Assembly (NCBI RefSeq): GCF_000392435.1
Contig: NC_021219.1
Coordinates: forward strand, 450,001-482,000
Direction of reading: 5' to 3'
Length of the DNA: 32,000 nt
Source: Candidatus Saccharimonas aalborgensis
GTDB taxonomy: Bacteria; Patescibacteriota; Saccharimonadia; Saccharimonadales; Saccharimonadaceae
The notes beneath the pieces are model-generated. The model saw only the letters and a program-made list of their open reading frames with translations. It had not been told where the DNA came from and made no database searches. The translations under genes were made by a program, and so were the position numbers. How positions within the stretch are numbered: position 1 is the first letter of the stretch; each line of letters opens with the position of its first letter. This document shows, piece by piece, positions 709-23,381 of the stretch.

Positions 709-1889
709 ACAGCCGCCTTTCTGTGTCGGATTAAGATGCGTTGATAGGGAACGATAGCTTTGCCATCGGTGTCGACGTAGACGGGGTTAATCCAGCCCTG
801 TCGTATCGCTCCTTTGTTACCTTGCTTATAGTAAAGATCGACAAATTCTTTTGTTACACCCCTCCAACCTTTTGGCAGGATATTTGACTGAGGATGACCC
901 ACGATCTCAAATTGCTCCGGCGAGTATTTGTCGAGGAAACTGATGGGTACTCCCATAACGCCATTGTAATCACTGGGAATTGCATCGCTAAACGGCACTT
1001 CAATGGCATCGTAATTGTCGTATTTATCATAAGCATCTCTACCCTGCATTTTTTTGTTGTGTTTCAAATTTTCGGCCATCGTCATGAGTTGCAATGGTTG
1101 GTGACGACGTGCGTGGTCAATGTTTGTGAACCAATTTACATTGCGAAACTTCACGAGTCCCGTCTGTTCATCAAACACTCCTGAGGCAAAATCACGAACA
1201 TTTTCAGAAGGTACCGAAAAATATGCGTTTCCCGCATTAAAACCGTTGCCGAGCCAAATCTTATCTTCCTTGATTAGGGGAAATATTTCTTTATACGTAA
1301 TAGCGTTCATGCTACCAATAATCACAAATTTCTTTTTGTATTCGACGAGCTGCCCTACGTACTCGCGAAACAAACTAAACGGCGGATTTGTCACCACGAT
1401 ATCCGACTGCTCGAGTAGCTCTACACACTCAACACTGCGAAAATCACCGTCGCCCTCGAGCGGGGTCCACTCGTTATGCTTATTTGCTTTGAGTTGCTGA
1501 GCCACGTCCTCGAGATTGAATTGCCCATCGTCATCATAGTCACCCACATCGCTAATGACAAACTTGTTTGCCGTTACCTTTGGCCTGCCTTTTGCTGGAG
1601 TGACGGTGACATCATCGCCAAACAGTCCGAGTTGTGTATTTGCAACGGGGCTTGGCTTGTAGCTCGTCGTGATTAGCTTTTTCAATCCCAGTCGCTTGAA
1701 GTTGAGCACAAAGTATTTGAAAAAGTTGCTCTCAAATGGGTCATCGCAGTTACAATAGACTACTTTGTCACGAAACGTATCGGGATTATACATAAGATAC
1801 GCCCCGATTTCCTTTTGGATGTCGGGATACTGCGTATAAAACTCATCATTTTTGGCCTTTTTGGCGCTAGTGAGGTTTGAGTTCGCCAT
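705..1889 (-). CDS. N6-adenine DNA methyltransferase, EcoRI-methylase family
   Basis: 394 aa. The N-terminal [12 protein letters not shown]...[18 protein letters not shown] block is typical of the EcoRI_methylase family. The catalytic NPPF motif is present ([10 protein letters not shown]). Confidence 0.8.
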
Positions 1890-1900
1890 AAACTGTAATT

Positions 1901-1909
1901 ATTATAGCA
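1901..1909 (-). promoter_or_regulatory. Extended -10 promoter element TGCTATAAT, 11 nt upstream of the methylase ATG
   Basis: The minus strand reads TGCTATAAT-aattacagttt-ATG. No Shine-Dalgarno fits in the 11-nt gap. Confidence 0.4.
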
Positions 1910-1937
1910 ACAGTGTTTGTTTTTGGTGAGACCTTAG

Positions 1938-2207
1938 TTAATAAGCAAATTGTTCGGATATGTGACCGTCGTTACCGAGCACATAAACGCTTGAGCGCTG
2001 GTTTTTAGCAATTGTTTTAGCCCTTGCTATTGCTTCGCGTTTGGTGTTATATACGCCAGTTGCTTTTTGAGCATGAAGTCGCCTAACACGCCACCCGTCA
2101 TGACTTTTAGCCACAAAATGTGCATTCATACCCGCGCGTGCTGCATCGACATATTCCTGTACCTGCGGATTATTCGTTGTGGATACCTGTGGAACTATTG
2201 GTAACAT
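1938..2207 (-). CDS. DUF2188 domain protein
   Basis: MNAHFVAKSHDGWRVRR...TKREAIARAKTIAKNQRSSVYVLGNDGHI matches the DUF2188 pattern (GW.V...a.r....t.t.eAi..A...A......v.vH..dG.i). The conserved part starts at the internal ATG 2129 (63 aa). The longer start at 2207 would overlap the upstream gene by 38 nt. Confidence 0.6.
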   Translation of the reverse strand: MLPIVPQVSTTNNPQVQEYVDAARAGMNAHFVAKSHDGWRVRRLHAQKATGVYNTKREAIARAKTIAKNQRSSVYVLGNDGHISEQFAY

Positions 2208-2850
2208 AATCTAATATCTCGTTTCTTATCTGTTGTTCAGTATATTGAATACCGCATAAAAACTCAAGTAACATCTGCCTATTAACAAATTTATGATATT
2301 TGAACTCCATTGTGCCACCTTCACGAAACTCCACATACTTGCTGCTAATAACTCTAACTTTAATATCTTCGTGACATTGCACAATTTCGTAGGCAGTTTG
2401 GCGAGAACTAGAGTGAGTACGATAAAAGTGGCTAATATCGTATTTACGCTGACGGTTAAGAAACACTCCGAACGCAACAATCAAACTCTCGGGTAACACA
2501 AGATGTAATTCGATCTTTTTTTGCTGCTTGATCGCTTTTTCGATTTTTATTTCGGCACCTCTCGTTGTTGGTAGTGTTCCGTCTAGGATTATCGCGCGAG
2601 TGGACGTAAGGTATGTCGCGACATACTCACTTTTTCCTGATGCAGCGCCGCCCGCAAGTAGAATGACTTTTCTTTCAGAGCGACGTTTAACGGCTTCATC
2701 ATACATTTTGTCCGCCATTTTTGCGGAAGCTTGATGAAACTGATCCGAATGCGCTGGGTCATATCCCTCAATATCCTTTTTTATTTCATCGGCTGCGATA
2801 ACATACGCCACGGATTTACTCACTCTCGTCCATGCGTCGACGACGCTCAT
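2170..2850 (-). CDS. P-loop NTPase, zeta-toxin / AAA_33-like kinase fold
   Basis: Walker A VILLAGGAASGKSEY follows an N-terminal helical segment, as in zeta-toxin family kinases. I prefer ATG 2850 (or GTG 2823) over the track start 2961, which lies deep inside the GIY-YIG gene. Confidence 0.55.
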   Translation of the reverse strand: MSVVDAWTRVSKSVAYVIAADEIKKDIEGYDPAHSDQFHQASAKMADKMYDEAVKRRSERKVILLAGGAASGKSEYVATYLTSTRAIILDGTLPTTRGAEIKIEKAIKQQKKIELHLVLPESLIVAFGVFLNRQRKYDISHFYRTHSSSRQTAYEIVQCHEDIKVRVISSKYVEFREGGTMEFKYHKFVNRQMLLEFLCGIQYTEQQIRNEILDYVTNSSTGIHNE

Positions 2851-3427
2851 CAAGAGTTTCCCCCTCGTATGACCAATGCGCAGTGCCCGATACAACATTG
2901 CGGTAGCCAAGCACTTCCTGTGCGGCGGCAGAAAGACTCGTTGGGCGACCGTTGAACTCAATACTTTCTGAACCTGTGCGGCCGATCACGCGCGCGGTAA
3001 TCGTATTATCGCGGCTGAAATGCAACTCAGCGCCAAGGGGAATATTTACCATGTCAAAATTAAATCGACCGCGCCGCTCACGGGCTTCGTCGAGAGCACG
3101 TTGGTCTTCGGGTGAATCAACGATGTCGTGACCAGGCGTAATGTCTTCGATCTGTGCAAGCTTGAGGGCCGCTACCACGCGTTCTGGGTCGATCGCAAAA
3201 AACTCGCGTTTCGGATTGACACGATTGTCACCAAACGCATCATGCAACTGCCGCTCCACAAATGTCGCATTAGCAACGGTACATGCATAATGAGGGGTGA
3301 ATGGCATCGGTACACTCGTCGATGCGCTCAGCTCGCGGATTCGCTGCTCAAGATTAGTGCTTGTCTTGCCGATCTTTACATACCCCGGCATTGCTTCATT
3401 TGTTAATACATAGATAATATCGCTCAT
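2816..3427 (-). CDS. GIY-YIG nuclease family protein (T5orf172/MUG113-like N-terminus, DUF4357-like C-terminus)
   Basis: MSDIIYVLTNEAMPGYVKIGKTS.NLEQRIRELS...REFF is the GIY-YIG-like T5orf172 pattern. The C-terminal half (FNFDMVNIPLGAELHF...SLSAAAQEVLGY...GTAHWSYEGETL) resembles DUF4357. Confidence 0.7.
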   Translation of the reverse strand: MSDIIYVLTNEAMPGYVKIGKTSTNLEQRIRELSASTSVPMPFTPHYACTVANATFVERQLHDAFGDNRVNPKREFFAIDPERVVAALKLAQIEDITPGHDIVDSPEDQRALDEARERRGRFNFDMVNIPLGAELHFSRDNTITARVIGRTGSESIEFNGRPTSLSAAAQEVLGYRNVVSGTAHWSYEGETLDERRRRMDESE

Positions 3428-6572: not shown

Positions 6573-7343
6573 TTAGTTCGGGATTAGCGTGTTGGCAAAG
6601 ATCTGAATCGCCAGTGCTGCTTTGGCAGTGAAGCTTAGTACGATATACGCACGCTCACCGCGCAAATAGTCTTTCCACTTTCCGAGTGCTCGGTACTGCT
6701 TGTACTGAACCAGTGCGAATGAATTAAACAGAAGGAATATCGACACAATAATACCGTAGACAAATGCTGGCGGTGTGGCGTCAGACGGCGAGTTGGGCGA
6801 TAGTACCGAAATAAGCACGATAAGCCACGGCACGATTCCTGCAATACAACCAAATATAAAGGGCAGCCATTCACGTGAGCCTGGACGCGTATACTTTTCT
6901 TGCAGCCAGCCGAACAAGATCATCGATACATTTACCCCAGCTATGCCGAGAAGCGCGCCATAATCACTAATCCCCGTAATCTGCGCGATAAGCAAAATCA
7001 TCAGTGTCGAGCTGATCGAATATTCGACCCAACGAAACACGTTGATCGTGTTACCAAGACCTTTGATATAGCGCTGGAAAAACACTTTCGACGCGACCAG
7101 CACGTGGAAAAGCGCCGACAATCCTAGGAACAGCGCCACGGCGTAACCTACCCGCACATTAAACAACGTGATTGGGTCTGTAAACACCGACCCCGGGGGT
7201 CCCGCTAAGTACGTCGCTGTCACAGGCAACGAAAATGAGTTTGAATAATACAGCACAAACAGCGCCAGCGCCAGATGAAACGCCGCTGCCGCAATATTTA
7301 GTTTTCGAAGTGACTGTTTTGATGCATGTGAGATGTTCGTCAT
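6573..7343 (-). CDS. Heliorhodopsin
   Basis: 256 aa with 7 TM helices. Family-typical blocks are present: LPVTATYLAGPPG, ALFLGLSALFH, FRWVEYSISS, SMILFGWLQEKYT, LPFIFGCIAGIVPW, FVYGIIVSIFLLFNSFALVQY, LRGERAYIVLSFTAKAALAIQIF. Glu107 and Lys241 sit where I recall the counterion and Schiff-base lysine of the prototype. Confidence 0.85.
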   Translation of the reverse strand: MTNISHASKQSLRKLNIAAAAFHLALALFVLYYSNSFSLPVTATYLAGPPGSVFTDPITLFNVRVGYAVALFLGLSALFHVLVASKVFFQRYIKGLGNTINVFRWVEYSISSTLMILLIAQITGISDYGALLGIAGVNVSMILFGWLQEKYTRPGSREWLPFIFGCIAGIVPWLIVLISVLSPNSPSDATPPAFVYGIIVSIFLLFNSFALVQYKQYRALGKWKDYLRGERAYIVLSFTAKAALAIQIFANTLIPN

Positions 7344-7349
7344 GATCTA

Positions 7350-7358
7350 ATAATAGCA
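7350..7358 (-). promoter_or_regulatory. Extended -10 TGCTATTAT exactly 6 nt upstream of the heliorhodopsin ATG (leaderless architecture)
   Basis: The minus strand reads TGCTATTAT-tagatc-ATG. Confidence 0.45.
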
Positions 7359-7502
7359 TAAACTATTTGTTGCACCGACTATGCAACCATGGCTGGAGCG
7401 CGGCGAACATACGCCTTGCATATGCTTTTCGCGATACAATTGGCTACCCGTATTCTATTGCTCCAGACTTAGAGTATAGATTCTGTAATATCATAGTATG
7501 CG

Positions 7503-8129
7503 TTAGCACATATCGCGAAATTTAGCGTATTGTCTAAACGTAAAATCTGCCTTGCAATGGCCGGTGTCTACAGATAGCACATTAAGTCCCCTTAGCGCCA
7601 ATATGTCCGCAGCTTTGCCGAGTTTGCGTTGATAGTGCGAGAGAAAGAATGGCGAATTAAATCCCCAAAACTCTTCACCCACAACACCGGAACGCTGGCG
7701 TTCACGTATGCGCTGTCCAATTATCGCATCAGCGGCAAACACATGAACAATAATGTCAGGCACCACACCGTTCTTTGTTTCATCGTTTAGCCACTGATCG
7801 ACGATCGTATGAGTAGCTGTGTAGGGTTCGCCAATACATTGACGCATAGCACCGTGAGACAATAACGTAATAAGCAGCGAATTTGTGGTGATAAGGTTAC
7901 CTTTGATAGAGGCTTGCGCTTGTTGCTCAGCGCGCTCTAGCGACAAGTAGAACGCTTCGCGATCGTTAATAAATGGCGCGTCGATGACTCTGCCCGTATT
8001 TGCTTGCTTAAAGGCAAGTGCCTCAACCGCAGTGCTTGATTCTACAGTATAATCGCCATACTTTTCGTAGATAGCCCGAACAAGCGTCGACTTGCCAGAG
8101 GCATCACAACCCATCACAAGAGTCTTCAC
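7503..8129 (-). CDS. P-loop nucleoside/nucleotide kinase-like protein (Tmk/dNK-like)
   Basis: Walker A MGCDASGKSTL resembles the thymidylate-kinase GxDGxGKST motif. There is an Arg-rich lid-like segment, QRIRERQRSG. The GTG start overlaps the HAD stop (GTGA at 8126-8129). Confidence 0.55.
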   Translation of the reverse strand: MKTLVMGCDASGKSTLVRAIYEKYGDYTVESSTAVEALAFKQANTGRVIDAPFINDREAFYLSLERAEQQAQASIKGNLITTNSLLITLLSHGAMRQCIGEPYTATHTIVDQWLNDETKNGVVPDIIVHVFAADAIIGQRIRERQRSGVVGEEFWGFNSPFFLSHYQRKLGKAADILALRGLNVLSVDTGHCKADFTFRQYAKFRDMC

Positions 8130-8740
8130 CGTCCCTCGTCCACGCCATCTAGCAAGTGATTGATTTGTGCAACTACTGCACCGGGGTTACCAGTATATAA
8201 AATTGCCCGTACGCCCGCTTTCAATGCGTTATCAATATCCATTTCCTGGTTGTCACCTATATGAACAATCTCATTTGGTTTTACGCCCCACTCCCTAGCG
8301 ATCGCGCCAAAGACATCGGCGGTTTTCCCTCCAGTCGAAAAATCGTCAACGCAGGAATATATTTTATTAAAGTACTGCTTGTTCAGCCCAAGCTCGTAAT
8401 CTATGAACCGGTTCGTCGTTGTCGAAAGTAGCACAACCGGCAGTGAAAGGCCTGCAATATATTCAATAAGCAGTTTCTCTACGCGAGGCTGCGGCACTAT
8501 ATGCGTTATGATATCGGCTGTTGAAAATCCTAGCTCGGCCCCCCAATATGCGTCATCGTAGTAGCGTAGGTCGTACTTGCCCATCGCTTTGAACATATCT
8601 CCCAGCGATCGTTTTGCTACCGCAACATCAACATTGTGCCTTTTCGCATATAGTTTTGGTAGCTCTTCCAACCAAAATGTATCCGAAAACGTTGCGTCAG
8701 ATACCACGCCCTGCAAGTCAAAGCTAATCAACCGTATCAT
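8126..8740 (-). CDS. HAD-superfamily hydrolase with atypical motif I (DxQ instead of DxD)
   Basis: Motif I is LISFDLQGVV. The other motifs are LLSTTTN and HIGDNQEMDIDNALKAG. Confidence 0.7.
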   Translation of the reverse strand: MIRLISFDLQGVVSDATFSDTFWLEELPKLYAKRHNVDVAVAKRSLGDMFKAMGKYDLRYYDDAYWGAELGFSTADIITHIVPQPRVEKLLIEYIAGLSLPVVLLSTTTNRFIDYELGLNKQYFNKIYSCVDDFSTGGKTADVFGAIAREWGVKPNEIVHIGDNQEMDIDNALKAGVRAILYTGNPGAVVAQINHLLDGVDEGR

Positions 8741-9260
8741 ACTTTTTTCTTATCCTTACCAGTGACAGTATGTCGTAGCCTGCAAGCTCTTCGCGACCGC
8801 CAAGATATTCGAGCTCAGTGACATATGCGAGGCCAGCCACAACACCACCACTCTTTTCGATAAGTGAAATAGCCGCCTTACTCGCTCCGCTACCCGCCAT
8901 AATGTCATATACCACCACTATCCGCTCCTTTGGCAACACTGCATCGGCCTTAATCACATATTCGCCCGTACCATATTCCTTGACAAATTCTTGGCTGTAA
9001 ACCTCGCCAGGTACCAGATTGGGCTTTCGAATAAGGACCATCGGGACCTGTAGCTCGTGGGCTAATATGGCACCCAAAGTGAAACCCTTTGATTCAATAG
9101 CGGCGATTGCATCAATTTTCTTATCACGCAAAAACTCTTTTATTTCTTGGATGGCAGTATTCCTGGCATGAACGTCTTTCAGCAAATAGCTAAAATCCCA
9201 GAATAGCACCCCTTCCTTTGGAAAATCTGGGTAACATCTCACCAAGGACCTGTAGTTCAT
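8724..9260 (-). CDS. apt: Adenine phosphoribosyltransferase-like protein with a divergent PRPP loop
   Basis: YPDFPKEGVLFWDFSYLL, IESKGFTLGA, VLIRKPNLVPGEVYSQEFVKEYGTGEYVI are collinear with Apt. The PRPP loop reads VVVYDIMAGSGAS rather than the usual VVDDLLATGGT. Confidence 0.65.
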   Translation of the reverse strand: MNYRSLVRCYPDFPKEGVLFWDFSYLLKDVHARNTAIQEIKEFLRDKKIDAIAAIESKGFTLGAILAHELQVPMVLIRKPNLVPGEVYSQEFVKEYGTGEYVIKADAVLPKERIVVVYDIMAGSGASKAAISLIEKSGGVVAGLAYVTELEYLGGREELAGYDILSLVRIRKKYDTVD

Positions 9261-9880
9261 AACGTTGCTCCCTCCAGCAAAATAGCGCGTGCTGGTGCAC
9301 CATCAATGCCCGTCACCTTAATCGGCAAACACACTAACGTATAGTGGCCAGCCGGAGCGTCAGCCAGCCGCAGGTTATCGAGCGAAATGATGTCCCGTTC
9401 CATATATATTCGATGAATCACATTTGCACCATCGCGTTCGAAGCTCTGATAATCAAACCCTATTAGTGTGATACCTAGATCACGTAAATAACATGCTGCC
9501 GCCTCACTCAAAGCAACATGGTTTGGATTGTACGACTTCATAGTGTCGTAAGAATTCTTTGTTTTAAGTAGAATGCGCTTACTGGTAATGTCATGTTTCT
9601 TAAGATCTGATATTTCAATGTAATCGCTCACGCCTGTGACATCAACTACCTGGCATTCGCCCATTAAGATGTCGAGGGGTATTTCATCAGACTTCCACTT
9701 ATCAGTGAACAAGTAATACGGTGCATCAACATGAGTGCCGGCATGCGAACCAAAGTCAAGCCACGTGAAGTTAACGGGAGCCTCTGGTTGTCGAGCAACT
9801 GGTATGAGCTTTGGCTGCTGATCCTCGACCCACACTACGGTTTGCTCATTTAAATCCATTGAGATATCAATTAACTTCAT
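9257..9880 (-). CDS. Cyclase-family protein (kynurenine formamidase / isatin hydrolase fold, PF04199-like)
   Basis: FGSHAGTHVDAPYY matches HxGTHxDxPxH, with Tyr in place of the last His. I prefer ATG 9880 (SD AAGGAGAAGG; ATGA overlap with the upstream stop) to the track start 9922. Confidence 0.7.
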   Translation of the reverse strand: MKLIDISMDLNEQTVVWVEDQQPKLIPVARQPEAPVNFTWLDFGSHAGTHVDAPYYLFTDKWKSDEIPLDILMGECQVVDVTGVSDYIEISDLKKHDITSKRILLKTKNSYDTMKSYNPNHVALSEAAACYLRDLGITLIGFDYQSFERDGANVIHRIYMERDIISLDNLRLADAPAGHYTLVCLPIKVTGIDGAPARAILLEGATL

Positions 9881-11136
9881 ACCTTCTCCTTTTCTAATAG
9901 TGTCGCTATCCGCTCTTCCCAAGACGCTCGATTCGACTCGAGACGTTCTATAATATCGGCAACAATACCACTGCGATACTGTTTGTAGAGCGGTAATAGT
10001 TGTCTAGTAAGCGGGATTATTTTACTATCAATCAGTGCAAATCCATTCCAATAGTCTAAGTGATTTGCTACTGGCATGGGAGACCAAGCGGGTGCATGTA
10101 GCTCGAACATTTGATCAAGCAGGTCCCACGTCTCTGTTTGCCCACCACTGGCATACTCTAACTTCTTCATAAGATACCGCGCAATATCATGATTGCTCAC
10201 ATAGTCGCGTACCTGTACTTCATGTAATGCGGATTGCAACATTGTTAAAGCGTTTGACTGCTGAATCGCTACGGACAGCCTTTCATAAAATGGCGCGGTG
10301 CTCTGGCGGTGCATCCTCACATCGCGTATACGTACCCTTCTAAAGTTATGTTTTGTCACGAAGTAGTAGTAGCCGATTATATCTATGCGGTTTTCATAGG
10401 GATACGCGCCCGCTGCGTAGCACTCTAGCTCAGTTCGTTTATCGTAGAGCGCAAAAGCAATCTTCTCATACTTATCAGAGTTATCTACAAATATACAATA
10501 GGCCGAAACGCTATACTGCGGCGTCGCGGTAAACAGCCTGGTCATCGTATTAAACGTTCGCAGTACTGTTCCGGAGTTAATATATTCGTCAAACAGTAAA
10601 AACGGTTCACAGAATACTGATGCAAGCTGAGTACCTGAAACAATTGTGCGCAGAGCCTGCACGGCAACATCATTATAGATTGCATGGTCAGCAATGCTGT
10701 CATATACCGACGGATTTTCTGGCGAACTTAGAACGACATTTTGCAATATTGGTTTTGCGCATTCTGCTTTTAACGCTTCGCGCCGTGTCATGTTACCGCT
10801 TTTATATATAACAGTTTCGTCGAGTTCTTCTGGTGACAGATACGCGTAAAACCACTCCAGCAGGCTAAACTCAGTATCGCGCGGAATCTTAATCTGGTGA
10901 ATTGTAACACCACTCTTTTCAAACTCCTGCAAACGACGCAGTATGTAAATGAGTGGTGCGGTGCCACTTTCAATGACGATTACTCTTTTGTGGCCACTTT
11001 CAATGATTTTTTTGAGCACCCGCCTTGCGAGCACTATGGCTTCACTATCATTCATGTAGTGGAACCGGCGTCTGAACGCAGGGTGCGTGAAACCGCGCAG
11101 AGTATCAATTGGCTGGTCATAAGGATTACTGCTCAT
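9877..11136 (-). CDS. Type-I phosphoribosyltransferase-like protein with an unrecognised helical C-terminal half
   Basis: The PRPP-binding loop FLLFDEYINSGTVL is canonical (4 hydrophobic, 2 acidic, 2 hydrophobic, xSGT). The rest of the 419 aa shows no motif I recognise. Confidence 0.45.
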   Translation of the reverse strand: MSSNPYDQPIDTLRGFTHPAFRRRFHYMNDSEAIVLARRVLKKIIESGHKRVIVIESGTAPLIYILRRLQEFEKSGVTIHQIKIPRDTEFSLLEWFYAYLSPEELDETVIYKSGNMTRREALKAECAKPILQNVVLSSPENPSVYDSIADHAIYNDVAVQALRTIVSGTQLASVFCEPFLLFDEYINSGTVLRTFNTMTRLFTATPQYSVSAYCIFVDNSDKYEKIAFALYDKRTELECYAAGAYPYENRIDIIGYYYFVTKHNFRRVRIRDVRMHRQSTAPFYERLSVAIQQSNALTMLQSALHEVQVRDYVSNHDIARYLMKKLEYASGGQTETWDLLDQMFELHAPAWSPMPVANHLDYWNGFALIDSKIIPLTRQLLPLYKQYRSGIVADIIERLESNRASWEERIATLLEKEKV

Positions 11137-11794
11137 CAAACGCCTTTGATATTCTTATAAACTCTGCGATTTTAGACAGATCTTTACGGTCTTTTCTTAA
11201 ATATGAATCACTGTAGCAGCTCACTCCTGTTGAAACATCGGTTCCATACGGCTTTGTCAGTACCATTGCAGCCTCGACATTGTCTGGGCGCAGACCGCCG
11301 GCAATAAACACAGGCTTACTTGTGCGTTTTATAAGCTCCGCACACGCCCGCCAGTCGTTCTCACCGCCAGTACCTCCTGTATACCCCGCCACGCGCGAGT
11401 CAAGTAGGAAGAAATCGCAATAGGGCTCGTAGATTGTGAGTTTGCGCGTCGCTTCTGGGTCACTTGTAACAATTGTCTTTATGATCTTACGTTCTGTGCC
11501 CTTACGTACCGCTGCCATTTCATTCTCATCAATATCTTCCGACACTTGAATGCCACTCGACTGTATGTAGTTGGCCAAGCTTAAAATATCATCTGCTTCC
11601 GTAAGGTGTGTCACCAAAAAACTATCGACACCCTCCGGGAACTTTTTGATGATTTGGCGGACATGTTGGGCATAGGGCTCTACTTCAACGGGCAATACCC
11701 TCCCGCCCATGACAAAACCAATCGCGTCTGCGCCAAGCCCAACTGCACTCAAGGCGTCGACTTCGTTGCTGATGCCACAAATCTTTACTTGCAT
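11126..11794 (-). CDS. trpF: Phosphoribosylanthranilate isomerase (TrpF)-like TIM-barrel Amadori isomerase
   Basis: MQVKICGIS...GADAIGFVMG...FLLDSRVAGYTGGTGGENDW...PVFIAGGLRPDNV...PYGTDVSTGVS is collinear with TrpF. No other trp genes are in the window. Confidence 0.75.
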   Translation of the reverse strand: MQVKICGISNEVDALSAVGLGADAIGFVMGGRVLPVEVEPYAQHVRQIIKKFPEGVDSFLVTHLTEADDILSLANYIQSSGIQVSEDIDENEMAAVRKGTERKIIKTIVTSDPEATRKLTIYEPYCDFFLLDSRVAGYTGGTGGENDWRACAELIKRTSKPVFIAGGLRPDNVEAAMVLTKPYGTDVSTGVSCYSDSYLRKDRKDLSKIAEFIRISKAFDEQ

Positions 11795-12903
11795 GTCTCA
11801 TTTTCCTTCCCTGAAATTACTCGCGCTATTTCTTCTCGCACACGCCTGTAGTCTTCCGCAAATGTCATAAGCTCACCATTGATGTCTAGGTGATGAAACT
11901 CCATGCCACGCTCATGCGCCTCAACCGCACCAGCAACGTTTACCGCTCCGATGCTTTTAACCCTAGTAACGTCATATCCGAATCGTTCCATTTGCGCAAT
12001 CTTAAGCGGGTTGTTAGTGAGCATGATGACACTTTTATTAACTGCTAAGTAGTCAAGAATAACTGGTGTAATTTTATAGCCTACACCATCGTTTTCGCCC
12101 CGCGGGTCACCGTTAATGCCGATCGTCGTAAACCCTCCGTACATACTTGTACGATAGGTTTGTTCAGACGTATATTCACCTCGGTGACGCATAGAGGCGC
12201 GCTCCGCAAGGTCAATCACAAACTCACCTTCCGTATACCCGCTTCCCATACCGTTCTGAGAATCAACATGTAGCATTACAAACCCAACCCGACCCGGCTG
12301 TTGGCAAGTGTGCTTACCGTCACGAACCACAAACTGATCCTGCACCCAACGCTCAAACTCATCACCCGCTACTGTATCTGGTGGTGTAACCGTGTTAAAC
12401 GAGGCCGCTAATTCACGAACATTCTGCCATTGATGATGACAGTTGCACCGCTGTGAGCCGAACAGGAAAGAAGGAGTACATGCCGATTCAGCGCGGAGTA
12501 CAAATTGATCGTCGTACACGTTACCAACAATCCCAGCGTTTGCATATTCCATACCGACGCCAGGCATATACACACACGATCCTACATGGCGAGTGATATT
12601 CGGGATTTCTTTCGATGTCAACGAAAATAGTGTCGCGCCCTTATTGGCAATGATCAACGCCTTTGTCGGAATATGTAATGCGACATCATATATATTCATC
12701 AAGTCACCCTCAGCAAGCTGTTGATTTAGTGCGGTGACAAACGTGCCAATAACCGACTCAAATAGCTGGCGGTCTGTAATTCGGTATACCGTATCACCGC
12801 CTTCAGTAGGAGCCGTATCCAACACCCGTGCATACACAGCATCGTACCGCTGTATGCGCTCTATCGCTTTTTGCAAGCCATTGGTTAGTGGGGTCGCTGT
12901 CAT
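11785..12903 (-). CDS. GTP cyclohydrolase II (RibA)-like protein with a ~120-aa N-terminal extension
   Basis: The zinc triad has RibA spacing, C-x10-C-x-C ([15 protein letters not shown]). The C-terminal block is [21 protein letters not shown] (RibA: LLTNNPxK...G). [16 protein letters not shown] corresponds to the RibA GILLYhrqEGRgiG region. Confidence 0.65.
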
Positions 12904-13709
12904 GATAGTTTCTCCTCTCTTCTGTGATATGTATATAGTTCCGATGGTCTATGTCCGCCCGTACGCACCGTGTTACCTGTTTTTTGAACTTTCTTGGCAA
13001 TCGTCCGGCGAAATGCGGGTGTCCAGACTTCACGACCCAGGATTGCTTCATAGACCTGCTGAAGCTCTCCAAGCGTAAACTGCTGCGGCATCATGTTAAA
13101 TACAATGTCAGAAGACACGGTTTTTTGGCGCAACAATTGCAGCCCAAACAAAATCATCTGGCAATGGTCAAAGGCAACGCCATTATTTTGAACAATCTCA
13201 TAACCATACAGCGACGATGTAGGATGTAGCTTCAGTTGCTTGGCTGAAAATGCCACGGTCATCGTACCATCTGTTAAGCTAACATGGATACTATTCTTGC
13301 GTTGCTTCACAGCAAGCTTCATCCACAATGCACCGTCACTCAGTGACTCGTTGCCCATCGTTTTGTCAACAAGCGACATAAACACCGTGCTAATTACTCT
13401 ACCTCGCGGGTCGCGGTCAACGCTGCTAAATGTATGTATCTGTTCGCTATAAATATTGTGAAGACCCGTTTCTCGCTCCAACACCCTGTCTGTCGCGTCA
13501 CGCAGTGTTTCGTTATTGCGCACAAAACCACCCGGCAGACTCCAGCTACCTGCAAATGGGGCCTTGTCCCTTTTGACCAACAGGATACTGATGTCCTTTG
13601 TCGGTGATCGACGTAGTTCTGTAGACGGCGTCGTGGCAACTGAAAACAACAGCGTGTCAACGGCAACCAATATTGTTTGTTCTTTGACTGACTTACTTAT
13701 CATTATCAT
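12900..13709 (-). CDS. NrtR-like Nudix-related transcriptional regulator (degenerate Nudix domain + C-terminal winged helix)
   Basis: The Nudix box [23 protein letters not shown] has REUxEE degraded to [15 protein letters not shown] is present. The C-terminus ([18 protein letters not shown]...[18 protein letters not shown]...FRRTI...GGHRPSELY) matches the NrtR wHTH pattern. Confidence 0.65.
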
Positions 13710-13722
13710 CTTTCTCCACTTA

Positions 13723-13756
13723 TTAACATTCTATTACTAAGTGCACGGAATGTCAA
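13723..13756. promoter_or_regulatory. Imperfect inverted repeat (TTGACATTC-N16-GAATGTTAA, 8/9) spanning the -35 and -10 boxes; candidate operator
   Basis: The arms lie at 13723-13731 and 13748-13756, enclosing the promoter. Confidence 0.35.
13728..13756 (-). promoter_or_regulatory. Sigma70-type promoter TTGACA-N17-TAGAAT of the eight-gene operon
   Basis: The minus strand reads TTGACAttccgtgcacttagtaaTAGAAT. About 18 nt further downstream lies the SD GGAGAA, then ATG 13709. Confidence 0.55.
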
Positions 13757-13850
13757 TATTTATTTTTCGCAGTACTTTCAGCCCCACTATTGTGCTATTG
13801 CTAATCGTTCATCGTATGGTCGACATAGCCAACGAGCAATGTGATAATCC

Positions 13851-14369
13851 TCAATCTGTAAAAGATTTAACTTCTTGTAACATCACGTTGACAATATGTT
13901 CAATGCTCATGTCTTTGCTGAGCACCTTTTCGCCCGGCACACCCAAATAATCTTTTTCGTTCCACCACTCGCGCATTTCTTTTTCTCCAAATTCGTGGGC
14001 ATTTGGTTTAGTGGCGTGCCTACATAGCGTCTCCTCAAATGGTATATCAAAGTAATAGACGTACACTTCGTCAAACCTATTTGCTAGGCGGCGAAGCATT
14101 GGACCATACTTTTTTGTAGCAAGTATGCCTTCGAGTATCACAGTACGCCGTTGCTGACGGCCAAACTCCACCACCAGTTCTATTAACTCAATCACCGAGC
14201 GTTTCTCTAGCATATCGCGCTCTCGCAGCATGTCACGTCGCAGCACATCTTGCTGGACGAGCAGGGTATTGTCACTTAGACTGTCACCAATTCTGCTACG
14301 CAGTTCTTTGGCAACGGTCGTTTTCCCGCTACCCGAATTTCCGCGAATGATGATGAGTGTTGAGGACAT
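13851..14369 (-). CDS. P-loop kinase-like protein (AAA_33 / zeta-like family)
   Basis: Walker A IIIRGNSGSGKTTVAKEL, then VILEG (Walker B-like). Small 172-aa single-domain protein. Confidence 0.6.
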   Translation of the reverse strand: MSSTLIIIRGNSGSGKTTVAKELRSRIGDSLSDNTLLVQQDVLRRDMLRERDMLEKRSVIELIELVVEFGRQQRRTVILEGILATKKYGPMLRRLANRFDEVYVYYFDIPFEETLCRHATKPNAHEFGEKEMREWWNEKDYLGVPGEKVLSKDMSIEHIVNVMLQEVKSFTD

Positions 14370-14396: not shown

Positions 14397-14831
14397 TTAG
14401 CCATCAATCTTATGTATATCGCCGTTCAGTACGATCGGTTCGAGTCCCAAAATCTCATCAAGCAGCGGAGACTCATCCGGTATGCCATTGAGAATATAAA
14501 TGGGTTTATGTAGGAAAAAGGCAACCGACATTTCCATCAGCACATTTGGGCCTATGTAGTTACTACTGCCATGCTTTTCGTAATTCATGACGAGAATTGC
14601 ATCACTTTTTGCTATTTCTTCGAAGTGCTCGCGTATCAGCACTGCCTTACCATGGTAACCTTGGGGTGACGCCTGCCAATCAGTGGTCGCTTCGTCGTTT
14701 TCTCTGCCCTCTGCTCGCATTGTTGCGGCTGTTTTTGGTAGTACGACCGTAAACCCCATCGCCTCCAGCTTGGGGCAAAACGCAATTACTTCGTTATAGA
14801 AACTCGCACTCGCACATAAAGCCAAGATCAT
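14397..14831 (-). CDS. Nucleoside 2-deoxyribosyltransferase-like (flavodoxin-like fold) protein
   Basis: MILALCASASFYNE...SDAILVMNYEKHGSSNYIGPNVLMEMSVAFFLHKPIYIL resembles the Nuc_deoxyrib_tr-like family pattern. I prefer ATG 14831 to the TTG at 14900 because of the extended -10 placed 6 nt upstream. Confidence 0.4.
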   Translation of the reverse strand: MILALCASASFYNEVIAFCPKLEAMGFTVVLPKTAATMRAEGRENDEATTDWQASPQGYHGKAVLIREHFEEIAKSDAILVMNYEKHGSSNYIGPNVLMEMSVAFFLHKPIYILNGIPDESPLLDEILGLEPIVLNGDIHKIDG

Positions 14832-14837
14832 AAATCT

Positions 14838-14846
14838 ATCATACCA
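14838..14846 (-). promoter_or_regulatory. Extended -10 TGGTATGAT exactly 6 nt upstream of ATG 14831
   Basis: The minus strand reads TGGTATGAT-agattt-ATG. Confidence 0.4.
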
Positions 14847-15029
14847 AGAATTGGGAAAAGTCCCACCAGCATATAGACGATAACTGTTTATCAAATCCAA
14901 AATGGGATATAGAATATAGGGTTAATCCCTATTAGGTGTTATTAATTGCTTCTTTGCTTGGCCCACAACGATAGAGAAAGCTATAACTGAGGTAAAAGAA
15001 GATTGCAGCTCAGTCAGCAAGCAGGTTAA

Positions 15030-15044: not shown

Positions 15045-15779
15045 ATGAAGATAATGTCACTCAATATGTGGCAGGGACGTCTAGAGCGTGTTCTGCTAAA
15101 ACATCTAGAAAATTCGGGCGTAGACTTTGCCTGTATGCAGGAAGCAGTTGACTACGATGGACAGTCGTTAGGACTAATCACTTCCTACCAAAAAGTAGGA
15201 AAGAGCCTGGGCTTACATGAGCAATTTTTCTCGAAACTAATTTCAAGCAAATTAGGCGATAAAGAACTGGCATTTGGAAACGCAATTTATTCCAATATCC
15301 CTTTTATGCAGACGAGCACGGTATTTACTAGGGGTGAGTATAAAAACGATTTTAATTTTGACGAGGACGATTACAACATTCGCGCCTTCCAACATGTTCA
15401 GGTAGTAATAGGCGGCAAAAAGCTGAATATCTTAAATCACCATGGGCACCATATTGACTCACATAAGCTGGGCGACGAAGAAACGATGCGTCAGGTTAAG
15501 CAGTTATGCGATTACATAAAAGGCCTTGACGGTTCGGTGATACTCTGTGGCGACTTCAACCTTGCGCCCGAAAGCGAATCAATAAAACTTATTGATTCGT
15601 GTCTAGATAATCTTTCAGTGAAGCATTCGCTCAAAACTACTCGCTCAAAACTAACATACAAAAATGAGGTGTGCGACTATATTTTTGCTAGTAGTGATAT
15701 CAAAGTAAACAGCTTTATGATGGATGAAACGATCATTTCTGATCACAATGCGTTAATACTTGACTTTGATTTGGTGTAA
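15045..15779 (+). CDS. Endonuclease/exonuclease/phosphatase (EEP) family protein
   Basis: MSLNMW...FACMQEA...ILNHH...LCGDFNLAPES...ISDHNALILDF are the EEP catalytic motifs. Confidence 0.8.
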   Translation: MKIMSLNMWQGRLERVLLKHLENSGVDFACMQEAVDYDGQSLGLITSYQKVGKSLGLHEQFFSKLISSKLGDKELAFGNAIYSNIPFMQTSTVFTRGEYKNDFNFDEDDYNIRAFQHVQVVIGGKKLNILNHHGHHIDSHKLGDEETMRQVKQLCDYIKGLDGSVILCGDFNLAPESESIKLIDSCLDNLSVKHSLKTTRSKLTYKNEVCDYIFASSDIKVNSFMMDETIISDHNALILDFDLV

Positions 15780-16123
15780 ACGGTTTCAATTCTAGTCTGG
15801 GGTATGAAAAAGTCAGAATCTTATTACAGTTCTCACTTTGTCTTTTACGGCTTGGCTCGCACTGGCAAACGAACTGCGAACGGCAAGTATGGGCTATGCC
15901 GACAGCGAAGTTCGTAATATAAAAGGCTTGTTGCTAGGCGTGGCATAGCCCCCCTATGCCTTGACCCTGATATTTTCGGAAGCCCGTAAACGCACTACCT
16001 ACCTAAATTATCGTGGCTAACAAAAAATCGTATGTTTTCCGTTTAGCCCAACAATTCAGCAAGTCTAACAGTGGTCAGGTTGTTAGGAAAGATTGTTGGC
16101 TTCAACCTGTGTTGATACGGCTG

Positions 16124-16129
16124 TAAAAT
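16124..16129 (+). promoter_or_regulatory. -10 hexamer TAAAAT (preceded directly by TG) exactly 6 nt upstream of ATG 16136
   Basis: The sequence reads cTGTAAAAT-agcaat-ATG. Confidence 0.4.
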
Positions 16130-16135
16130 AGCAAT

Positions 16136-17086
16136 ATGACAAAGCAGATAACAAAGAAACAACACTTCGCACCACGCTTTTACTTCAAGCGGTTTGCGGT
16201 TGATAATATGTTACAGACTTTAGATATTCAAAAAGGCAAACTCATAAAACCACGACCTTATAGCGGTGTCTGTTATGCCGACTTTTACTACGCCGTTGAA
16301 ACTGGAAAAGAAGACGAAACAAGCCAAGTGTTTGAGCAGTTTTTCGGCGAGATTGAAGATAAGTTTGCCAAAGAATACGACAACATCATTGACGCAATAT
16401 GGAATTATAGACCACTGACAGACCAACAGTTAGATACTCTTGCGTGGTTTATGGCGTCCTTGTGGATTAGAAGCCCGCATATGCGAAACCAAGTGAATAA
16501 GACTATGGCTGACGGTATGAAACAAATGACTACAATGATGGCTTCGCACCCGAACTTTACCGAAGGTGCTAAAAAGGCTATGGAAGAAGAAGGACATCAA
16601 GTAACCGATGAACAAATTGAAGACGCCAGAAAAACATTTGTAAGTGGCGAATACGAACTGACTTTTGATAATAACGTCAACCACCTAAACCTGATTGCCC
16701 ACTGCGAAGAGTTTTACAGATGGTTTCTTATAAAAAACTGGCGGTTCTATCTAGCCAAAGGCTCAAAAAAGTTCGTAACTACGGACACGCCAGTGATTGA
16801 AGTTTTCAATAACACTGGTAAGACAATGGTTGAAAAAATGTACAGCAACCACATCGCCCAAAGACGACACTACCTTGCCCTGACACCTGAAATACTTATT
16901 GAACTTATAGACCCTCTAAAGTCTGGTAAAAAGCAGAAACGCCACGCTATAACAAATGATGAAATGATAATTCAGAGTAACTTACTACTTGTGCGTTGGT
17001 CTAAAGACTACGCATATGCCAACAACAAAGAGTATCTGGAAGACTTATTGCCCTTCTATACAGGCGTACCGACAGAAGTGATATAA
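16136..17086 (+). CDS. DUF4238 domain protein
   Basis: The N-terminal KKQHFAPRFYFKRF matches the DUF4238 HyvPqfyLk.F signature. 316 aa. Confidence 0.6.
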   Translation: MTKQITKKQHFAPRFYFKRFAVDNMLQTLDIQKGKLIKPRPYSGVCYADFYYAVETGKEDETSQVFEQFFGEIEDKFAKEYDNIIDAIWNYRPLTDQQLDTLAWFMASLWIRSPHMRNQVNKTMADGMKQMTTMMASHPNFTEGAKKAMEEEGHQVTDEQIEDARKTFVSGEYELTFDNNVNHLNLIAHCEEFYRWFLIKNWRFYLAKGSKKFVTTDTPVIEVFNNTGKTMVEKMYSNHIAQRRHYLALTPEILIELIDPLKSGKKQKRHAITNDEMIIQSNLLLVRWSKDYAYANNKEYLEDLLPFYTGVPTEVI

Positions 17087-17098
17087 GGTTGGAAAAGG

Positions 17099-17290
17099 TT
17101 ACTTATTGGCGTTATGTCGCTTGGAAATACGTAGATACACAAACAATAACGGCACGAACACAACTATCGCCACGACAGTAGTTACAAGCAGGTTAGTACC
17201 TTCTGGGTCATTGGGATTGGCAAGCCATAGGACTAGTCTTGAAGTGGCAAAAGACACTATCACAAGTATGAGCAAGGTAACGTATTTCAT
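17099..17290 (-). CDS. Small membrane protein (63 aa, two predicted TM helices)
   Basis: VTLLILVIVSFATSRLVLWLA and LLVTTVVAIVVFVPLLFVYL, with a basic tail. Confidence 0.4.
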   Translation of the reverse strand: MKYVTLLILVIVSFATSRLVLWLANPNDPEGTNLLVTTVVAIVVFVPLLFVYLRISKRHNANK

Positions 17291-17296
17291 AATTGG

Positions 17297-18151
17297 CTAC
17301 TTTATCTCTCGTGCATACAGTGCTTTTACAAACTCTGGGTCATCGTGATTGACGAACAGACCCTTGTTTTCGTCCAGCCCAGCAATAGCGGTCATATCTT
17401 CGTCTGACAACTCAAAGTCAAACACATTGAAGTTTTCAACTATACGCTCTTTATGCGTTGATTTTGGTATGGCTACCACACCACGCTGTATATTCCAACG
17501 TAACACAACCTGCCCGACAGACTTGCCGTGTGCCTTTGCGATACGAGCCAGCGTTTCGTTAGTGAATAAGTCTTGCCTGCCTTCCGCAAAAGGTGCCCAG
17601 CCTTCGTGAATAATGCCATATTCGTCCAAAATCTTACGTGCTTCTGCTTGCTGATTGAAGGGGTGTGTTTCAATCTGATTGACCATTGGCTTGATTTTAT
17701 TGTTCAGCACAAAATCAACCACCTTCACACTAGTAAAGTTAGACACGCCGATGGCTTTTACTTTACCTGCCTCATACAATTCTTCCATCGCTCGCCACGC
17801 ACCGAATACGTCATTATATGGTTGGTGTATCAGATATAAATCAACGTATTCTACGCCAAGTTTATCTAGTGAACGTTGAAAAGCCTCTTTTGTCTTTTCG
17901 TAGGTAGCGTCAGCGAGCCACAATTTAGTTGTCAGAAAAATATCTTCTCGTGGCACACCACTACGCTTGATACCACGACCAACGGCTTCTTCATTTTGAT
18001 ACGACTGTGCGGTGTCTATAAGGCGATACCCAGCCTGTAATGCGTCATAGACGCTCTGTTCGGCTTCTTCGTTAGTCATCTGAAAAACACCAAAGCCAAG
18101 AGCGGGCATTTGGACACCGTTATATAGGGTAACTGTCGGAACTTTTGTCAT
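17297..18151 (-). CDS. Aldo/keto reductase (2,5-diketo-D-gluconate reductase-like)
   Basis: PALGFGVFQM..., GYRLIDTAQSYQNEEAVG, LDLYLIHQP, IGVSNF, IPKS...RI.ENF are the classic AKR motifs. SD aaaaGGAcgtaATG. Confidence 0.9.
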   Translation of the reverse strand: MTKVPTVTLYNGVQMPALGFGVFQMTNEEAEQSVYDALQAGYRLIDTAQSYQNEEAVGRGIKRSGVPREDIFLTTKLWLADATYEKTKEAFQRSLDKLGVEYVDLYLIHQPYNDVFGAWRAMEELYEAGKVKAIGVSNFTSVKVVDFVLNNKIKPMVNQIETHPFNQQAEARKILDEYGIIHEGWAPFAEGRQDLFTNETLARIAKAHGKSVGQVVLRWNIQRGVVAIPKSTHKERIVENFNVFDFELSDEDMTAIAGLDENKGLFVNHDDPEFVKALYAREIK

Positions 18152-18287
18152 TACGTCCTTTTCTATAAATACTTTATATCTCTATTATACGCCCCGCCGA
18201 TAGGGGGGTAGTCGCCCTTTGTTTCGCCGTTTGACACTCCGCTATATGAAATGCCGATTTTTTGGGGGTCATTTTGCCAAGCGTTTT

Positions 18288-22806: not shown

Positions 22807-22827
22807 TTGTCGCTACTTCCTTATATG

Positions 22828-22846
22828 TGCTAACACTTCGTTAGCA
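22828..22846. promoter_or_regulatory. Perfect inverted repeat TGCTAAC-N5-GTTAGCA (operator candidate, mod-proximal)
   Basis: tgctaac acttc gttagca, 22-40 nt upstream of the mod ATG. Confidence 0.5.
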
Positions 22847-22885
22847 AACCATCTGTTATCAAATATAACAAATTATCACTTGTTT

Positions 22886-22904: not shown

Positions 22905-22935
22905 GTGTTTGACATCTTTGACAGCGAAAATAACT

Positions 22936-23172: not shown

Positions 23173-23179
23173 TTGTTGG

Positions 23180-23368: not shown

Positions 23369-23381
23369 ACTACCAATATCA

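Follow-up and report, generated by a model that had tools for sequence, protein, structure and literature searches.

Two described systems resemble the locus reported here most closely. In vitro, E. coli RibA and Chlamydia TrpF together convert GTP through a diaminopyrimidine ribotide to dihydroneopterin monophosphate (Adams et al. 2014, PMC4161248), and an E. coli mutant deleted for folE is rescued by chlamydial trpF alone, which draws on the RibA of its host (PMC4161248). Archaea and Rhizobiales use separate proteins to open the ring and to remove the formyl group, and the formamidases ArfB and BrbF, which act on 2-amino-5-formylamino-6-ribosylamino-4(3H)-pyrimidinone 5'-phosphate (AFRPP), belong to the creatininase family (PMC9478397). 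We analyzed an eight-gene operon (g1 to g8) in a stretch of 32,000 nucleotides from Candidatus Saccharimonas aalborgensis (contig NC_021219.1, positions 450,001 to 482,000), which we call the window and whose own numbering we use. We propose, tentatively and with a little less than even confidence, that this operon is one copy, under its own regulator, of a six-gene cassette, g2 to g7, that has spread horizontally and would lead from GTP to a pterin-type product. An earlier account of the same DNA, made from its letters without database searches (hereafter the sequence-only reading), had suggested a self-contained route from base to ribotide to ring-opened ribosylamine to Amadori product, with no described pathway to match.

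All eight minus-strand open reading frames (ORFs) that the sequence-only reading had listed between 13709 and 7503 are present, each gene overlaps the next, and the seven overlaps, read straight off the DNA at the gene junctions, agree with those it gave. The motifs that it quoted were also recovered in full, namely C142-x10-C153-x-C155 and LTNNPLK in g2, the phosphoribosyl pyrophosphate (PRPP) loop FLLFDEYINSGT in g4, and HAGTHVDAP in g5. The features of the operon are as follows.

13728-13756, minus strand: sigma-70-type promoter TTGACA-N17-TAGAAT, 11 of 12 matches
13717-13743, no strand assigned: putative g1 operator, 27-bp palindrome CACTTAGTAA-N7-TTAATAAGTG covering the -10 box
12900-13709, minus strand: g1, NrtR/AraR-family regulator, degenerate Nudix plus winged helix (PF21906, PF00293)
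12900-12903, minus strand: g1/g2 overlap, ATGA
11785-12903, minus strand: g2, divergent enzyme with a predicted GTP-cyclohydrolase-II fold, 372 amino acids (AlphaFold2, Foldseek, hhalign)
11785-11794, minus strand: g2/g3 overlap, 10 nt
11126-11794, minus strand: g3, TrpF-type Amadori isomerase (PF00697, 1lbm)
11126-11136, minus strand: g3/g4 overlap, 11 nt, with the g4 ATG start
9877-11136, minus strand: g4, new family with an HGPRT-like type-I phosphoribosyltransferase fold and a C-terminal helical domain (AlphaFold2, Foldseek)
9877-9880, minus strand: g4/g5 overlap, ATGA, with the g5 ATG start
9257-9880, minus strand: g5, cyclase/kynurenine-formamidase-fold metal hydrolase, proposed formamidase (PF04199)
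9257-9260, minus strand: g5/g6 overlap, ATGA
8724-9260, minus strand: g6, divergent APRT-like type-I phosphoribosyltransferase (NF002636)
8724-8740, minus strand: g6/g7 overlap, 17 nt
8126-8740, minus strand: g7, HAD-IA superfamily hydrolase with an atypical motif I, D-L-Q (PF00702, PF13419)
8126-8129, minus strand: g7/g8 overlap, GTGA
7503-8129, minus strand: g8, P-loop (AAA_33) kinase (PF13671, E 3.8e-7)

Judged by Pfam gathering scores, seven of the eight products pass for their expected families and g4 passes for none. The longest frame of g4 starts at a TTG at 11139, and the ATG at 11136 is better supported and equals the 419-amino-acid public gene call; likewise, the longest frame of g5 starts at a TTG at 9922, and the ATG at 9880 is better supported, as alignments to homologues and PDB entries begin at the Met of the 207-amino-acid form. 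Public records conflict on the starts of g4 (392 or 419 amino acids), g5 (200 or 207) and g8 (203 or 208), and one g2 record has 276 amino acids, so some of the gene overlaps are hidden by automated annotation. A purine-rich, Shine-Dalgarno-like stretch lies 5' of most operon starts.

The central protein of the cassette is g2. Its AlphaFold2 model, built with 29 homologues, has a predicted local distance difference test (pLDDT) of 83.6 and a predicted template-modeling score (pTM) of 0.87. The sole significant Foldseek match against the PDB was the GTP cyclohydrolase II of H. pylori (4rl4; E 5.7e-5, probability 1.00, template-modeling score (TM) 0.66 on the target), with about 19% identity to RibA over the structural alignment, and UTP cyclohydrolase was the second-best structural match. 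When aligned with hhalign, Cys54, Cys65, Cys67, Arg128 and Lys154 of E. coli RibA pair with C142, C153, C155, R268 and K301 of g2, and the paired zinc cysteines, arginine and lysine are invariant across the 29 homologues. The predicted structure of g2 is that of a true GTP-cyclohydrolase-II fold with the RibA metal ligands, and both the RibA-like fold and the aligned zinc ligands, on which the sequence-only reading had staked its case, are found. Curated models match g2 over its C-terminal 60-70 residues: PF00925 scores 34 bits against a gathering score of 23.3 and covers profile positions 95-162 only, while equivalog cut-offs are not reached (TIGR00505, 31 bits against 206; NF001591, 33 against 148). 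Tyr105 of E. coli RibA pairs with I230 of g2 at an hhalign probability of 65%, and the family mostly has Phe there. This tyrosine was reportedly needed for formate release by RibA in work on S. coelicolor by Spoonamore and Bandarian in 2008. Because the deformylation tyrosine is not conserved, g2 probably stops at AFRPP, a soft argument.

The substrate of g2 is suggested by its relatives in uncultured Methanobrevibacter, where a homologue 58% identical to g2 is directly followed by ArfC, the archaeal 2,5-diamino-6-ribosylamino-4(3H)-pyrimidinone 5'-phosphate (DARP) reductase (TIGR01508, 218 bits against a cut-off of 186). This adjacency places g2 upstream of a ribosylaminopyrimidine and points to GTP as the substrate. 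In these loci (L007, L008 and L020), g2 occurs without the other core genes, next to ArfC and a major facilitator superfamily transporter, which suggests a cross-domain transfer and possibly the replacement of GTP cyclohydrolase III. Other relatives of g2 stand alone as well. Those in Chlamydiae lie amid genes that seem unrelated and of housekeeping type, and the translated neighbors, read by eye, gave no functional clue. Two further g2-only contexts keep an NrtR-type regulator: in L011 (8001-12183) a Nudix-g2 fusion precedes a P-loop protein, a PF13528 glycosyltransferase and a second similar-looking ORF, and in L009 (7308-10880) g2 precedes a 227-amino-acid protein with an NDK-like IKPDG motif and no profile match, and a Maf nucleotide pyrophosphatase.

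The calls of a TrpF-like isomerase and a formamidase-fold protein also held when searched against profiles and solved structures. g3 scores 63 bits with PF00697 against a gathering score of 22.7 and matches T. maritima TrpF (1lbm) at E 5e-19, with the catalytic Cys (in KICG, the general base) and Asp (in LLDS, the general acid) aligned; both are kept in 22 g3 orthologues and presumably correspond to Cys7 and Asp126 of T. maritima TrpF. The top NCBIfam score of g3 (121 bits against a cut-off of 215) is below equivalog level, and, as the sequence-only reading had said of this DNA, trpA-E are absent, from the window and from every related locus. g5 matches PF04199 (E 4e-19, 69.5 bits against 23.1) and, below its cut-off of 223, the arylformamidase model TIGR03035 at 118.6 bits. 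Its PDB matches are 8hmo, 1r61 and the kynurenine formamidase KynB (4cob, 4e-21), and it is closest to bacterial aryl-formamidases. The metal motif of g5 is HAGTHVDAPYY, compared with HxGTHxDxPxH in KynB, and HAGTHxDAP is kept across the g5 family.

To place these proteins among relatives, one genome per GTDB species was scanned, and the 33 loci with a g2 relative were translated and compared with the proteins of the window. At least 16 complete loci, spread over different phyla and the two domains, have the order g2-g3-g4-g5-g6-g7, so the conservation on which the sequence-only reading had made its proposal depend is observed. Hosts include uncultured gut Clostridia, other Saccharibacteria, Parcubacteria, Sungbacteria, Obscuribacterales (Melainabacteria) and DPANN/Woesearchaeota, and the order also occurs in metagenome-assembled genomes labeled Methanosarcinales and Muribaculaceae. 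Among incomplete relatives, four loci are ended by a contig edge and one, in Coxiellaceae, has only g2, g3 and an aminotransferase. The recurrence of this order in unrelated lineages is not chance. Identity to the window proteins is 50-75% for g2, g3 and g5, even in archaea, and 26-50% for g4, and such high cross-domain identity fits repeated horizontal transfer of a functional unit.

Relatives of the operon carry additional genes. In 14 loci, g2 has a viperin-like radical-SAM gene immediately 3' of it, and in a fifteenth (L029) the two are fused; the viperin-like protein matches the PADLOC pVip model at E 3e-32 and NCBIfam viperin_w_prok at E 7e-32, at a score of 110, below the NCBIfam cut-off of 180. 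In seven archaeal loci, a Tmk-like kinase follows the viperin-like gene. An active small Nudix gene precedes g2 in archaea, and several proteins are Nudix-g2 fusions. In three loci, a class-III aminotransferase gene separates g3 from g4, and in the Coxiellaceae locus such a gene comes right behind g3. Clostridia have an IDI-like Nudix or a Cmk-like kinase gene after g7, and in L031 prs (ribose-phosphate diphosphokinase) and an active Nudix gene lie upstream of g2. No viperin-family radical-SAM gene is present in the window, and it is missing from the Melainabacteria, Parcubacteria and Sungbacteria versions too. The accessory genes indicate that what the window holds is a cut-down version of a module that is larger and variable; in this respect the self-contained operon of the sequence-only reading was only partly right, as relatives add radical-SAM, kinase, Nudix, aminotransferase or Prs genes. 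In the Clostridia locus L012 (11115-11970), the viperin-like gene is split into ORFs of 156 and 130 amino acids, which reflects a frameshift, a pseudogene or an assembly error, and it is intact in L013, L014 and L016.

The best-supported reading of the core is that three separate enzymes, g2, g5 and g3, together carry out the chemistry of GTP cyclohydrolase I, and we propose that the product is of pterin type or an open-chain ribulosylaminopyrimidine precursor. First, g4 and g6 would convert purine bases obtained by salvage to ribotides, with PRPP as co-substrate, and g8 would help raise these to the triphosphate, with prs contributing in some relatives. CPR and DPANN hosts are salvage-dependent and thought to lack de novo purine synthesis. 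Second, the zinc enzyme g2 would release pyrophosphate from GTP and open the imidazole ring, stopping at AFRPP. Third, g5 would strip off the aryl-formyl group, yielding DARP, the 2,5-diamino compound. Fourth, by analogy with Chlamydia TrpF, g3 would catalyze an Amadori rearrangement whose product could close to 7,8-dihydroneopterin monophosphate. In a fifth step, the weakest because motif I of g7 is atypical, g7 may dephosphorylate or otherwise process the product. By way of the -10 palindrome, g1 would repress the promoter and release it upon binding of an effector that contains ribose, and in most other lineages the viperin-like radical-SAM enzyme, kinases, Nudix proteins and aminotransferase may tailor the same scaffold. 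The ring-opening, deformylation and Amadori logic of the sequence-only reading is thus the part of its proposal that fared best.

Several observations weigh against this pathway. The hhalign pairing of g2 with RibA is weak (probability 65%) and the Tyr105 argument soft, and GTP as the substrate of g2 is suggested by one gene neighborhood. The fourth His of the KynB metal site is Tyr throughout the g5 family, and g7 is without the second Asp, the general acid/base typical of HAD phosphatases. The invariant APRT-like gene is left unexplained by a route that uses GTP only. Neither folB, folK, folP, queD nor a sepiapterin-reductase-type gene was found in any examined locus, which leaves no evident use for a neopterin-type product. 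Finally, the viperin-like enzyme beside or fused to g2 points to a modified ribose in the full cassette, suggesting that a modified nucleotide, such as a 3'-deoxy-3',4'-didehydro form, and not plain GTP, may have been the ancestral substrate or product. A bolder claim, which we consider possible and rather doubtful, is that g2-g7, joined in the full form by the viperin-like radical-SAM enzyme, kinases, a Nudix protein and an aminotransferase, are at once an undescribed, horizontally mobile pathway and the source of a new small molecule derived from GTP, either a pterin with a modified side chain or a nucleotide analogue of the ribulosylaminopyrimidine kind. Under that claim, at the same doubtful level, the g4 family, g5 as a third type of AFRPP formamidase and g3 as a dedicated TrpF-type pterin-forming isomerase would all be new, and the product, made under the control of a Nudix-type sensor, would serve the ultra-small symbionts of CPR and DPANN, and gut anaerobes, as a cofactor, a signal or an antiviral compound.

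g4 and g6 would supply the ribotides in the proposed route. g4 has no Pfam, NCBIfam or PDB profile match, PF00156 included, and a per-member Pfam scan of its family at E up to 1 returned noise only. A profile search of 1.84 billion proteins gave 111 representatives of the family and no bridge to a named one. The AlphaFold2 model of g4 has a pLDDT of 93, and its top 30 or more Foldseek matches are all 6-oxopurine phosphoribosyltransferases (HGPRT/HGXPRT) at probability 0.9-0.99, with E values of only about 0.02-0.1 and a TM of about 0.4 on the target; the C-terminal helical domain is unmatched in Foldseek. The family invariants are ESGTxPL and FDEYINxGT. The sequence-only reading had called g4 a phosphoribosyltransferase from its PRPP loop, which the HGPRT-like match supports at the level of fold. 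One paralogue (P0246; L045, 3419-6307) fuses the g4-family domain to an FkbH/HAD-IIIC domain and is flanked by genes for an acyl carrier protein, a glyoxalase-fold protein and IMP dehydrogenase, a second context for this fold family. In polyketide pathways, FkbH loads glyceryl units onto a carrier protein. The position of the paralogue by IMP dehydrogenase is a weak further link to 6-oxopurine nucleotides.

The assignment of g6 as an APRT-like protein also held at the level of fold, with divided scores from the curated models: NF002636 is passed with 158.5 bits against 125, while TIGR01090 (151 against 186), NF002633 (156 against 224) and the other NCBIfam models fall short. Its PRPP loop, VVYDIMAGSGAS, has Y-D in place of D-D in 18 sequences, and family-wide g6 has FWD for FRD and YDIMAGSGA for DDLLATGGT relative to E. 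coli Apt, whose motifs we take to be FRD and VVDDLLATGGT. A base-to-ribotide role for g4 and g6 together is what we infer from these resemblances.

Two phosphoribosyltransferase-fold genes that are invariant in the core, in hosts generally known to depend on salvage, would also suit ribotide-level catabolism or interconversion of purines, similar to the fungal URC route, which shares the logic of a phosphoribosyltransferase, a kinase and a RibA-family cyclohydrolase and whose UTP cyclohydrolase resembles g2 in structure. Here, g4 and g6 would phosphoribosylate, g8 phosphorylate, g2 open the ring, g5 deformylate, and g3 and g7 process the ribosylamine, freeing formate, nitrogen or ribose, or disposing of an unwanted purine. 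However, the C-N sugar bond of an Amadori product is non-hydrolysable and better suited to biosynthesis, no conserved downstream amidohydrolase, urease or sugar-utilization genes lie near the cassette, and the aminotransferase and radical-SAM enzymes, both optional, resemble tailoring enzymes, so we regard such catabolism as improbable. The invariance of the APRT-like gene would be accounted for by an adenine-based route resembling early histidine or coformycin chemistry, in which g6 would yield AMP, g4 attach another phosphoribosyl group in the manner of HisG, a Nudix protein or g2 take off pyrophosphate and cleave the ring like HisIE, and g3 isomerize like HisA, with g5 working on what results. 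The set of a phosphoribosyltransferase, a cyclohydrolase, a TrpF/HisA-superfamily isomerase, an optional aminotransferase and a HAD protein mirrors HisG, HisIE, HisA, HisC and HisB, and the Nudix-g2 fusions recall that of HisIE. This route is very unlikely in our view, for g2 has the RibA fold and catalytic set and not the HisI fold, g3 matches TrpF models and not HisA, and the Methanobrevibacter homologue of g2 adjoins a reductase of GTP-derived riboflavin synthesis.

The remaining link of the proposed pathway is its regulator. Both domains of g1 are above gathering score (PF21906, E 1.8e-17; PF00293, E 1.9e-11), in agreement with the NrtR-like Nudix and winged-helix protein that the sequence-only reading had recognized, and its solved relatives are AraR of Bacteroides (5bs6, 8e-32), the closest, and NrtR of Shewanella (3gz5). 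The Nudix box of g1 has RVLERE in place of REUxEE, and NF050029 scores 106 bits against a cut-off of 400. As the closest solved relative is AraR, ADP-ribose as the effector of g1 is only assumed. An NrtR-family gene adjoins the cassette, co-directional or divergent, in most loci, and the regulator of the gut Clostridia loci is 46-48% identical to g1.

The promoter that had been placed ahead of the operon is the top promoter-like site in the 6.8 kb scanned (7300-14100). Over its -10 box lies an inverted repeat with 10-nt arms that are 90% complementary, and the pattern ACTTANTAA-N7-TTANTAAGT has its sole exact match in the window at this putative operator. A near-identical palindrome, AACTTTTTAATAAAATGTTAATAAGT, occupies the same promoter position in gut Clostridia loci (L012-L016 and L042), which share the promoter architecture and have a second palindrome site upstream; archaeal loci, whose regulator is more distant, have repeated TTACGT-N7-ACGTAA boxes instead. 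Autoregulated repression by g1 at the promoter palindrome is the straightforward reading. A copy of the pattern with two mismatches lies at 27593-27617, 46 bp upstream of an ORF (27663-30968) for a 1101-amino-acid STAND (NACHT/AAA_16) protein with Ig-like domains, and may be coincidental, as 0.26 matches with up to three mismatches are expected by chance in the window. Rfam gave no match at gathering score on the whole window, riboswitches such as those for FMN or THF included, and the tRNA scan found none.

The NrtR-family regulator beside most loci would also be consistent with a supply of flavin or deazaflavin precursors or with NAD metabolism, a reading to which ArfC beside the Methanobrevibacter g2, NadE convergent downstream in gut Clostridia and prs upstream in L031 could be added. 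We give this reading very little credence, as the conserved core has no ribB, ribD, ribH, ribE, nadV, pncB, nadD or nadM, neither riboflavin nor NAD synthesis has room for an Amadori rearrangement of the TrpF type, and a regulator closest to the arabinose sensor AraR does not imply NAD by its family. The NadE gene of the gut Clostridia loci (L012-L014) encodes a glutamine-dependent NAD synthetase with CN_hydrolase and NAD_synthase domains (hidden Markov model (HMM) search, L013). In L012, L014 and L016, an NMT1/THI5 (ThiY-like) ATP-binding cassette substrate-binding protein is encoded upstream of the regulator (HMM search, L012 copy). Other candidates were tried and rejected: 7-deazapurine synthesis, as the accessory radical-SAM protein is viperin/MoaA-like and not QueE-like and queD and queC are missing; riboflavin or F420 synthesis in the organism of the window, as there are no rib genes; and tryptophan or de novo kynurenine/NAD synthesis, as trp genes, TDO, KMO and kynureninase are all missing.

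The last two genes of the operon differ in how far they belong to the cassette. g7 is above gathering score for PF00702 and PF13419 and has motifs II-IV, so the HAD fold that had been assigned to it stands; its motif I is FDLQG, with a Gln invariant in 17 orthologues, D-x-Q as opposed to the D-x-D of phosphatases, and the hydrolase function implied by that assignment is less certain. g8 is confined to Saccharibacteria versions, with orthologues in L017 and L043. It had been read as Tmk-like, but no Tmk match was obtained, and it is an AAA_33/VakA-like P-loop kinase instead; its sole match in the PADLOC defense library is VakA, the viperin-associated kinase (E 4.2e-6), and a sequence search found no solved relative.

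Beyond the operon, the window contains the following features.

6573-7343, minus strand: heliorhodopsin gene (PF18761), 160 bp downstream of g8 on the same strand
705-1889: EcoRI-type methylase
2816-3427: T5orf172
16136-17086: DUF4238
18288-22806: type III restriction-modification (R-M) system
25971-27494: large serine recombinase

No terminator-like site was found between g8 and the heliorhodopsin gene, and this adjacency occurs only in near-identical contigs (L001-L006). Two nucleotide-related genes, at 13851-14369 and 14397-14900 on the minus strand, lie directly upstream of the promoter and are kept only in close relatives: one encodes a PRK06762-family P-loop kinase (NF005255, 180 bits against 140), and the other a 167-amino-acid protein with a faint resemblance to nucleoside 2-deoxyribosyltransferases (E 0.15). 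Farther out, 15045-30968 and 705-3427 are rich in defense and mobility genes, including a STAND NTPase. Otherwise identical contigs differ by an R-M block in one set and a beta-lactamase-like gene with a 1326-amino-acid AAA_16 protein in the other (L002-L004 against L001, L005 and L006), and this variable segment lies beyond the upstream neighbors of the operon. The neighborhood fits a mobile or defense-island setting.

Such a setting, with R-M systems, T5orf172, DUF4238, the STAND NTPase and the serine recombinase around the operon and a strain-variable segment nearby, raises the question of whether the cassette is a chemical-defense module making an antiviral or antimicrobial nucleotide or nucleoside analogue, whose version in the window lost the radical-SAM gene. 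In detail, a viperin-like enzyme and kinases would make a didehydro nucleoside triphosphate that g2, g5 and g3 then transform, and the NrtR-type repressor would turn the module on as ADP-ribose rises. The match of the radical-SAM protein to pVip models and its place directly after or fused to g2, the match of g8 to VakA, the Tmk/Cmk-like kinases and Nudix genes that accompany the cassette, and its patchy cross-domain distribution at 50-70% identity all favor such a function. Yet PADLOC, run on all eight operon proteins, gave no match for any of g2-g7; the viperin-like protein scores under the NCBIfam cut-off and is missing from the window and from Melainabacteria, Parcubacteria and Sungbacteria; no relatives of g2 or of g4 were found in IMG/VR viral contigs or, by tblastn, in PLSDB plasmids; and the Methanobrevibacter context resembles housekeeping riboflavin synthesis. 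On balance, we consider a defense function unlikely, with a better claim than catabolism of purines.

The pathway from GTP to a pterin-type product, if correct, would have consequences beyond this genome. It would add a third, unrelated type of AFRPP formamidase (g5), a new phosphoribosyltransferase-fold family and a divergent clade of RibA known to date from uncultured lineages alone. It would also credit CPR and DPANN organisms with a biosynthetic ability, whereas the usual account denies them the synthesis of cofactors and nucleotides. The viperin-like enzymes in the cassette could mean that viperin chemistry serves metabolite tailoring here, or that pterin-type chemistry serves antiviral defense.

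Compared with known systems, the operon shares pieces with several. Most related loci embed a viperin-like radical-SAM gene and Tmk/Cmk-like kinases, and g8 resembles VakA, all similar to pVip and kinase antiviral modules, but the window has no radical-SAM gene and the viperin-like proteins of its relatives are under the curated cut-off; to our knowledge, pVip systems do not include cyclohydrolase, TrpF or formamidase genes. The degenerate Nudix domain and NrtR winged helix, the palindrome over the promoter, and prs and Nudix genes in related loci recall NrtR/AraR regulons, whereas the controlled genes here are for neither NAD synthesis nor pentose utilization. Fungal and bacterial URC systems (URC1, a UTP cyclohydrolase, and URC6, a uracil phosphoribosyltransferase) likewise combine a phosphoribosyltransferase with a RibA-family cyclohydrolase at the nucleotide level; the operon has no URC4-, URC8- or urea-amidolyase-type genes, its phosphoribosyltransferase-fold proteins (HGPRT-like and APRT-like) look to be of purine type, and TrpF and a formamidase are added.

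The claim that no described pathway matches was half right, given the precedents of Chlamydia RibA and TrpF (PMC4161248) and of ArfB and BrbF (PMC9478397). In a search of about 8 million full texts, we found no description of a dedicated, regulated, widely transferred cassette with these extra genes, of the g4 family, of a cyclase-fold AFRPP formamidase or of the viperin-like link. As with ArfA (GTP cyclohydrolase III) and ArfB or BrbF, AFRPP would be formed and deformylated to DARP by separate proteins, but ArfA is not of RibA fold, and ArfB and BrbF are of the creatininase family, unlike the cyclase/kynurenine-formamidase fold of g5. The bypass of FolE/FolQ by RibA and TrpF(CtL2) in Chlamydia follows the same order, ring opening by a GTP-cyclohydrolase-II fold and then an Amadori step by a TrpF fold. 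There the enzymes are housekeeping, promiscuous and unlinked, whereas their counterparts in the operon are dedicated neighbors whose translation is coupled and which are transferred together; g2 shares about 19% identity with RibA over the structural alignment and has large extra segments, and the operon adds a separate formamidase, two phosphoribosyltransferase-fold proteins, a HAD protein and a regulator, with no folate genes nearby. GTP cyclohydrolase I (FolE) performs the ring opening, deformylation, Amadori rearrangement and ring closure proposed here as a single enzyme of unrelated fold with a triphosphate product, while here three polypeptides would share the work, and a monophosphate is expected, as RibA-type enzymes release pyrophosphate. 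If so, the GTP cyclohydrolase I reaction would have been rebuilt from three unrelated enzymes as a dedicated mobile operon, unlike the accidental patchwork of Chlamydia.

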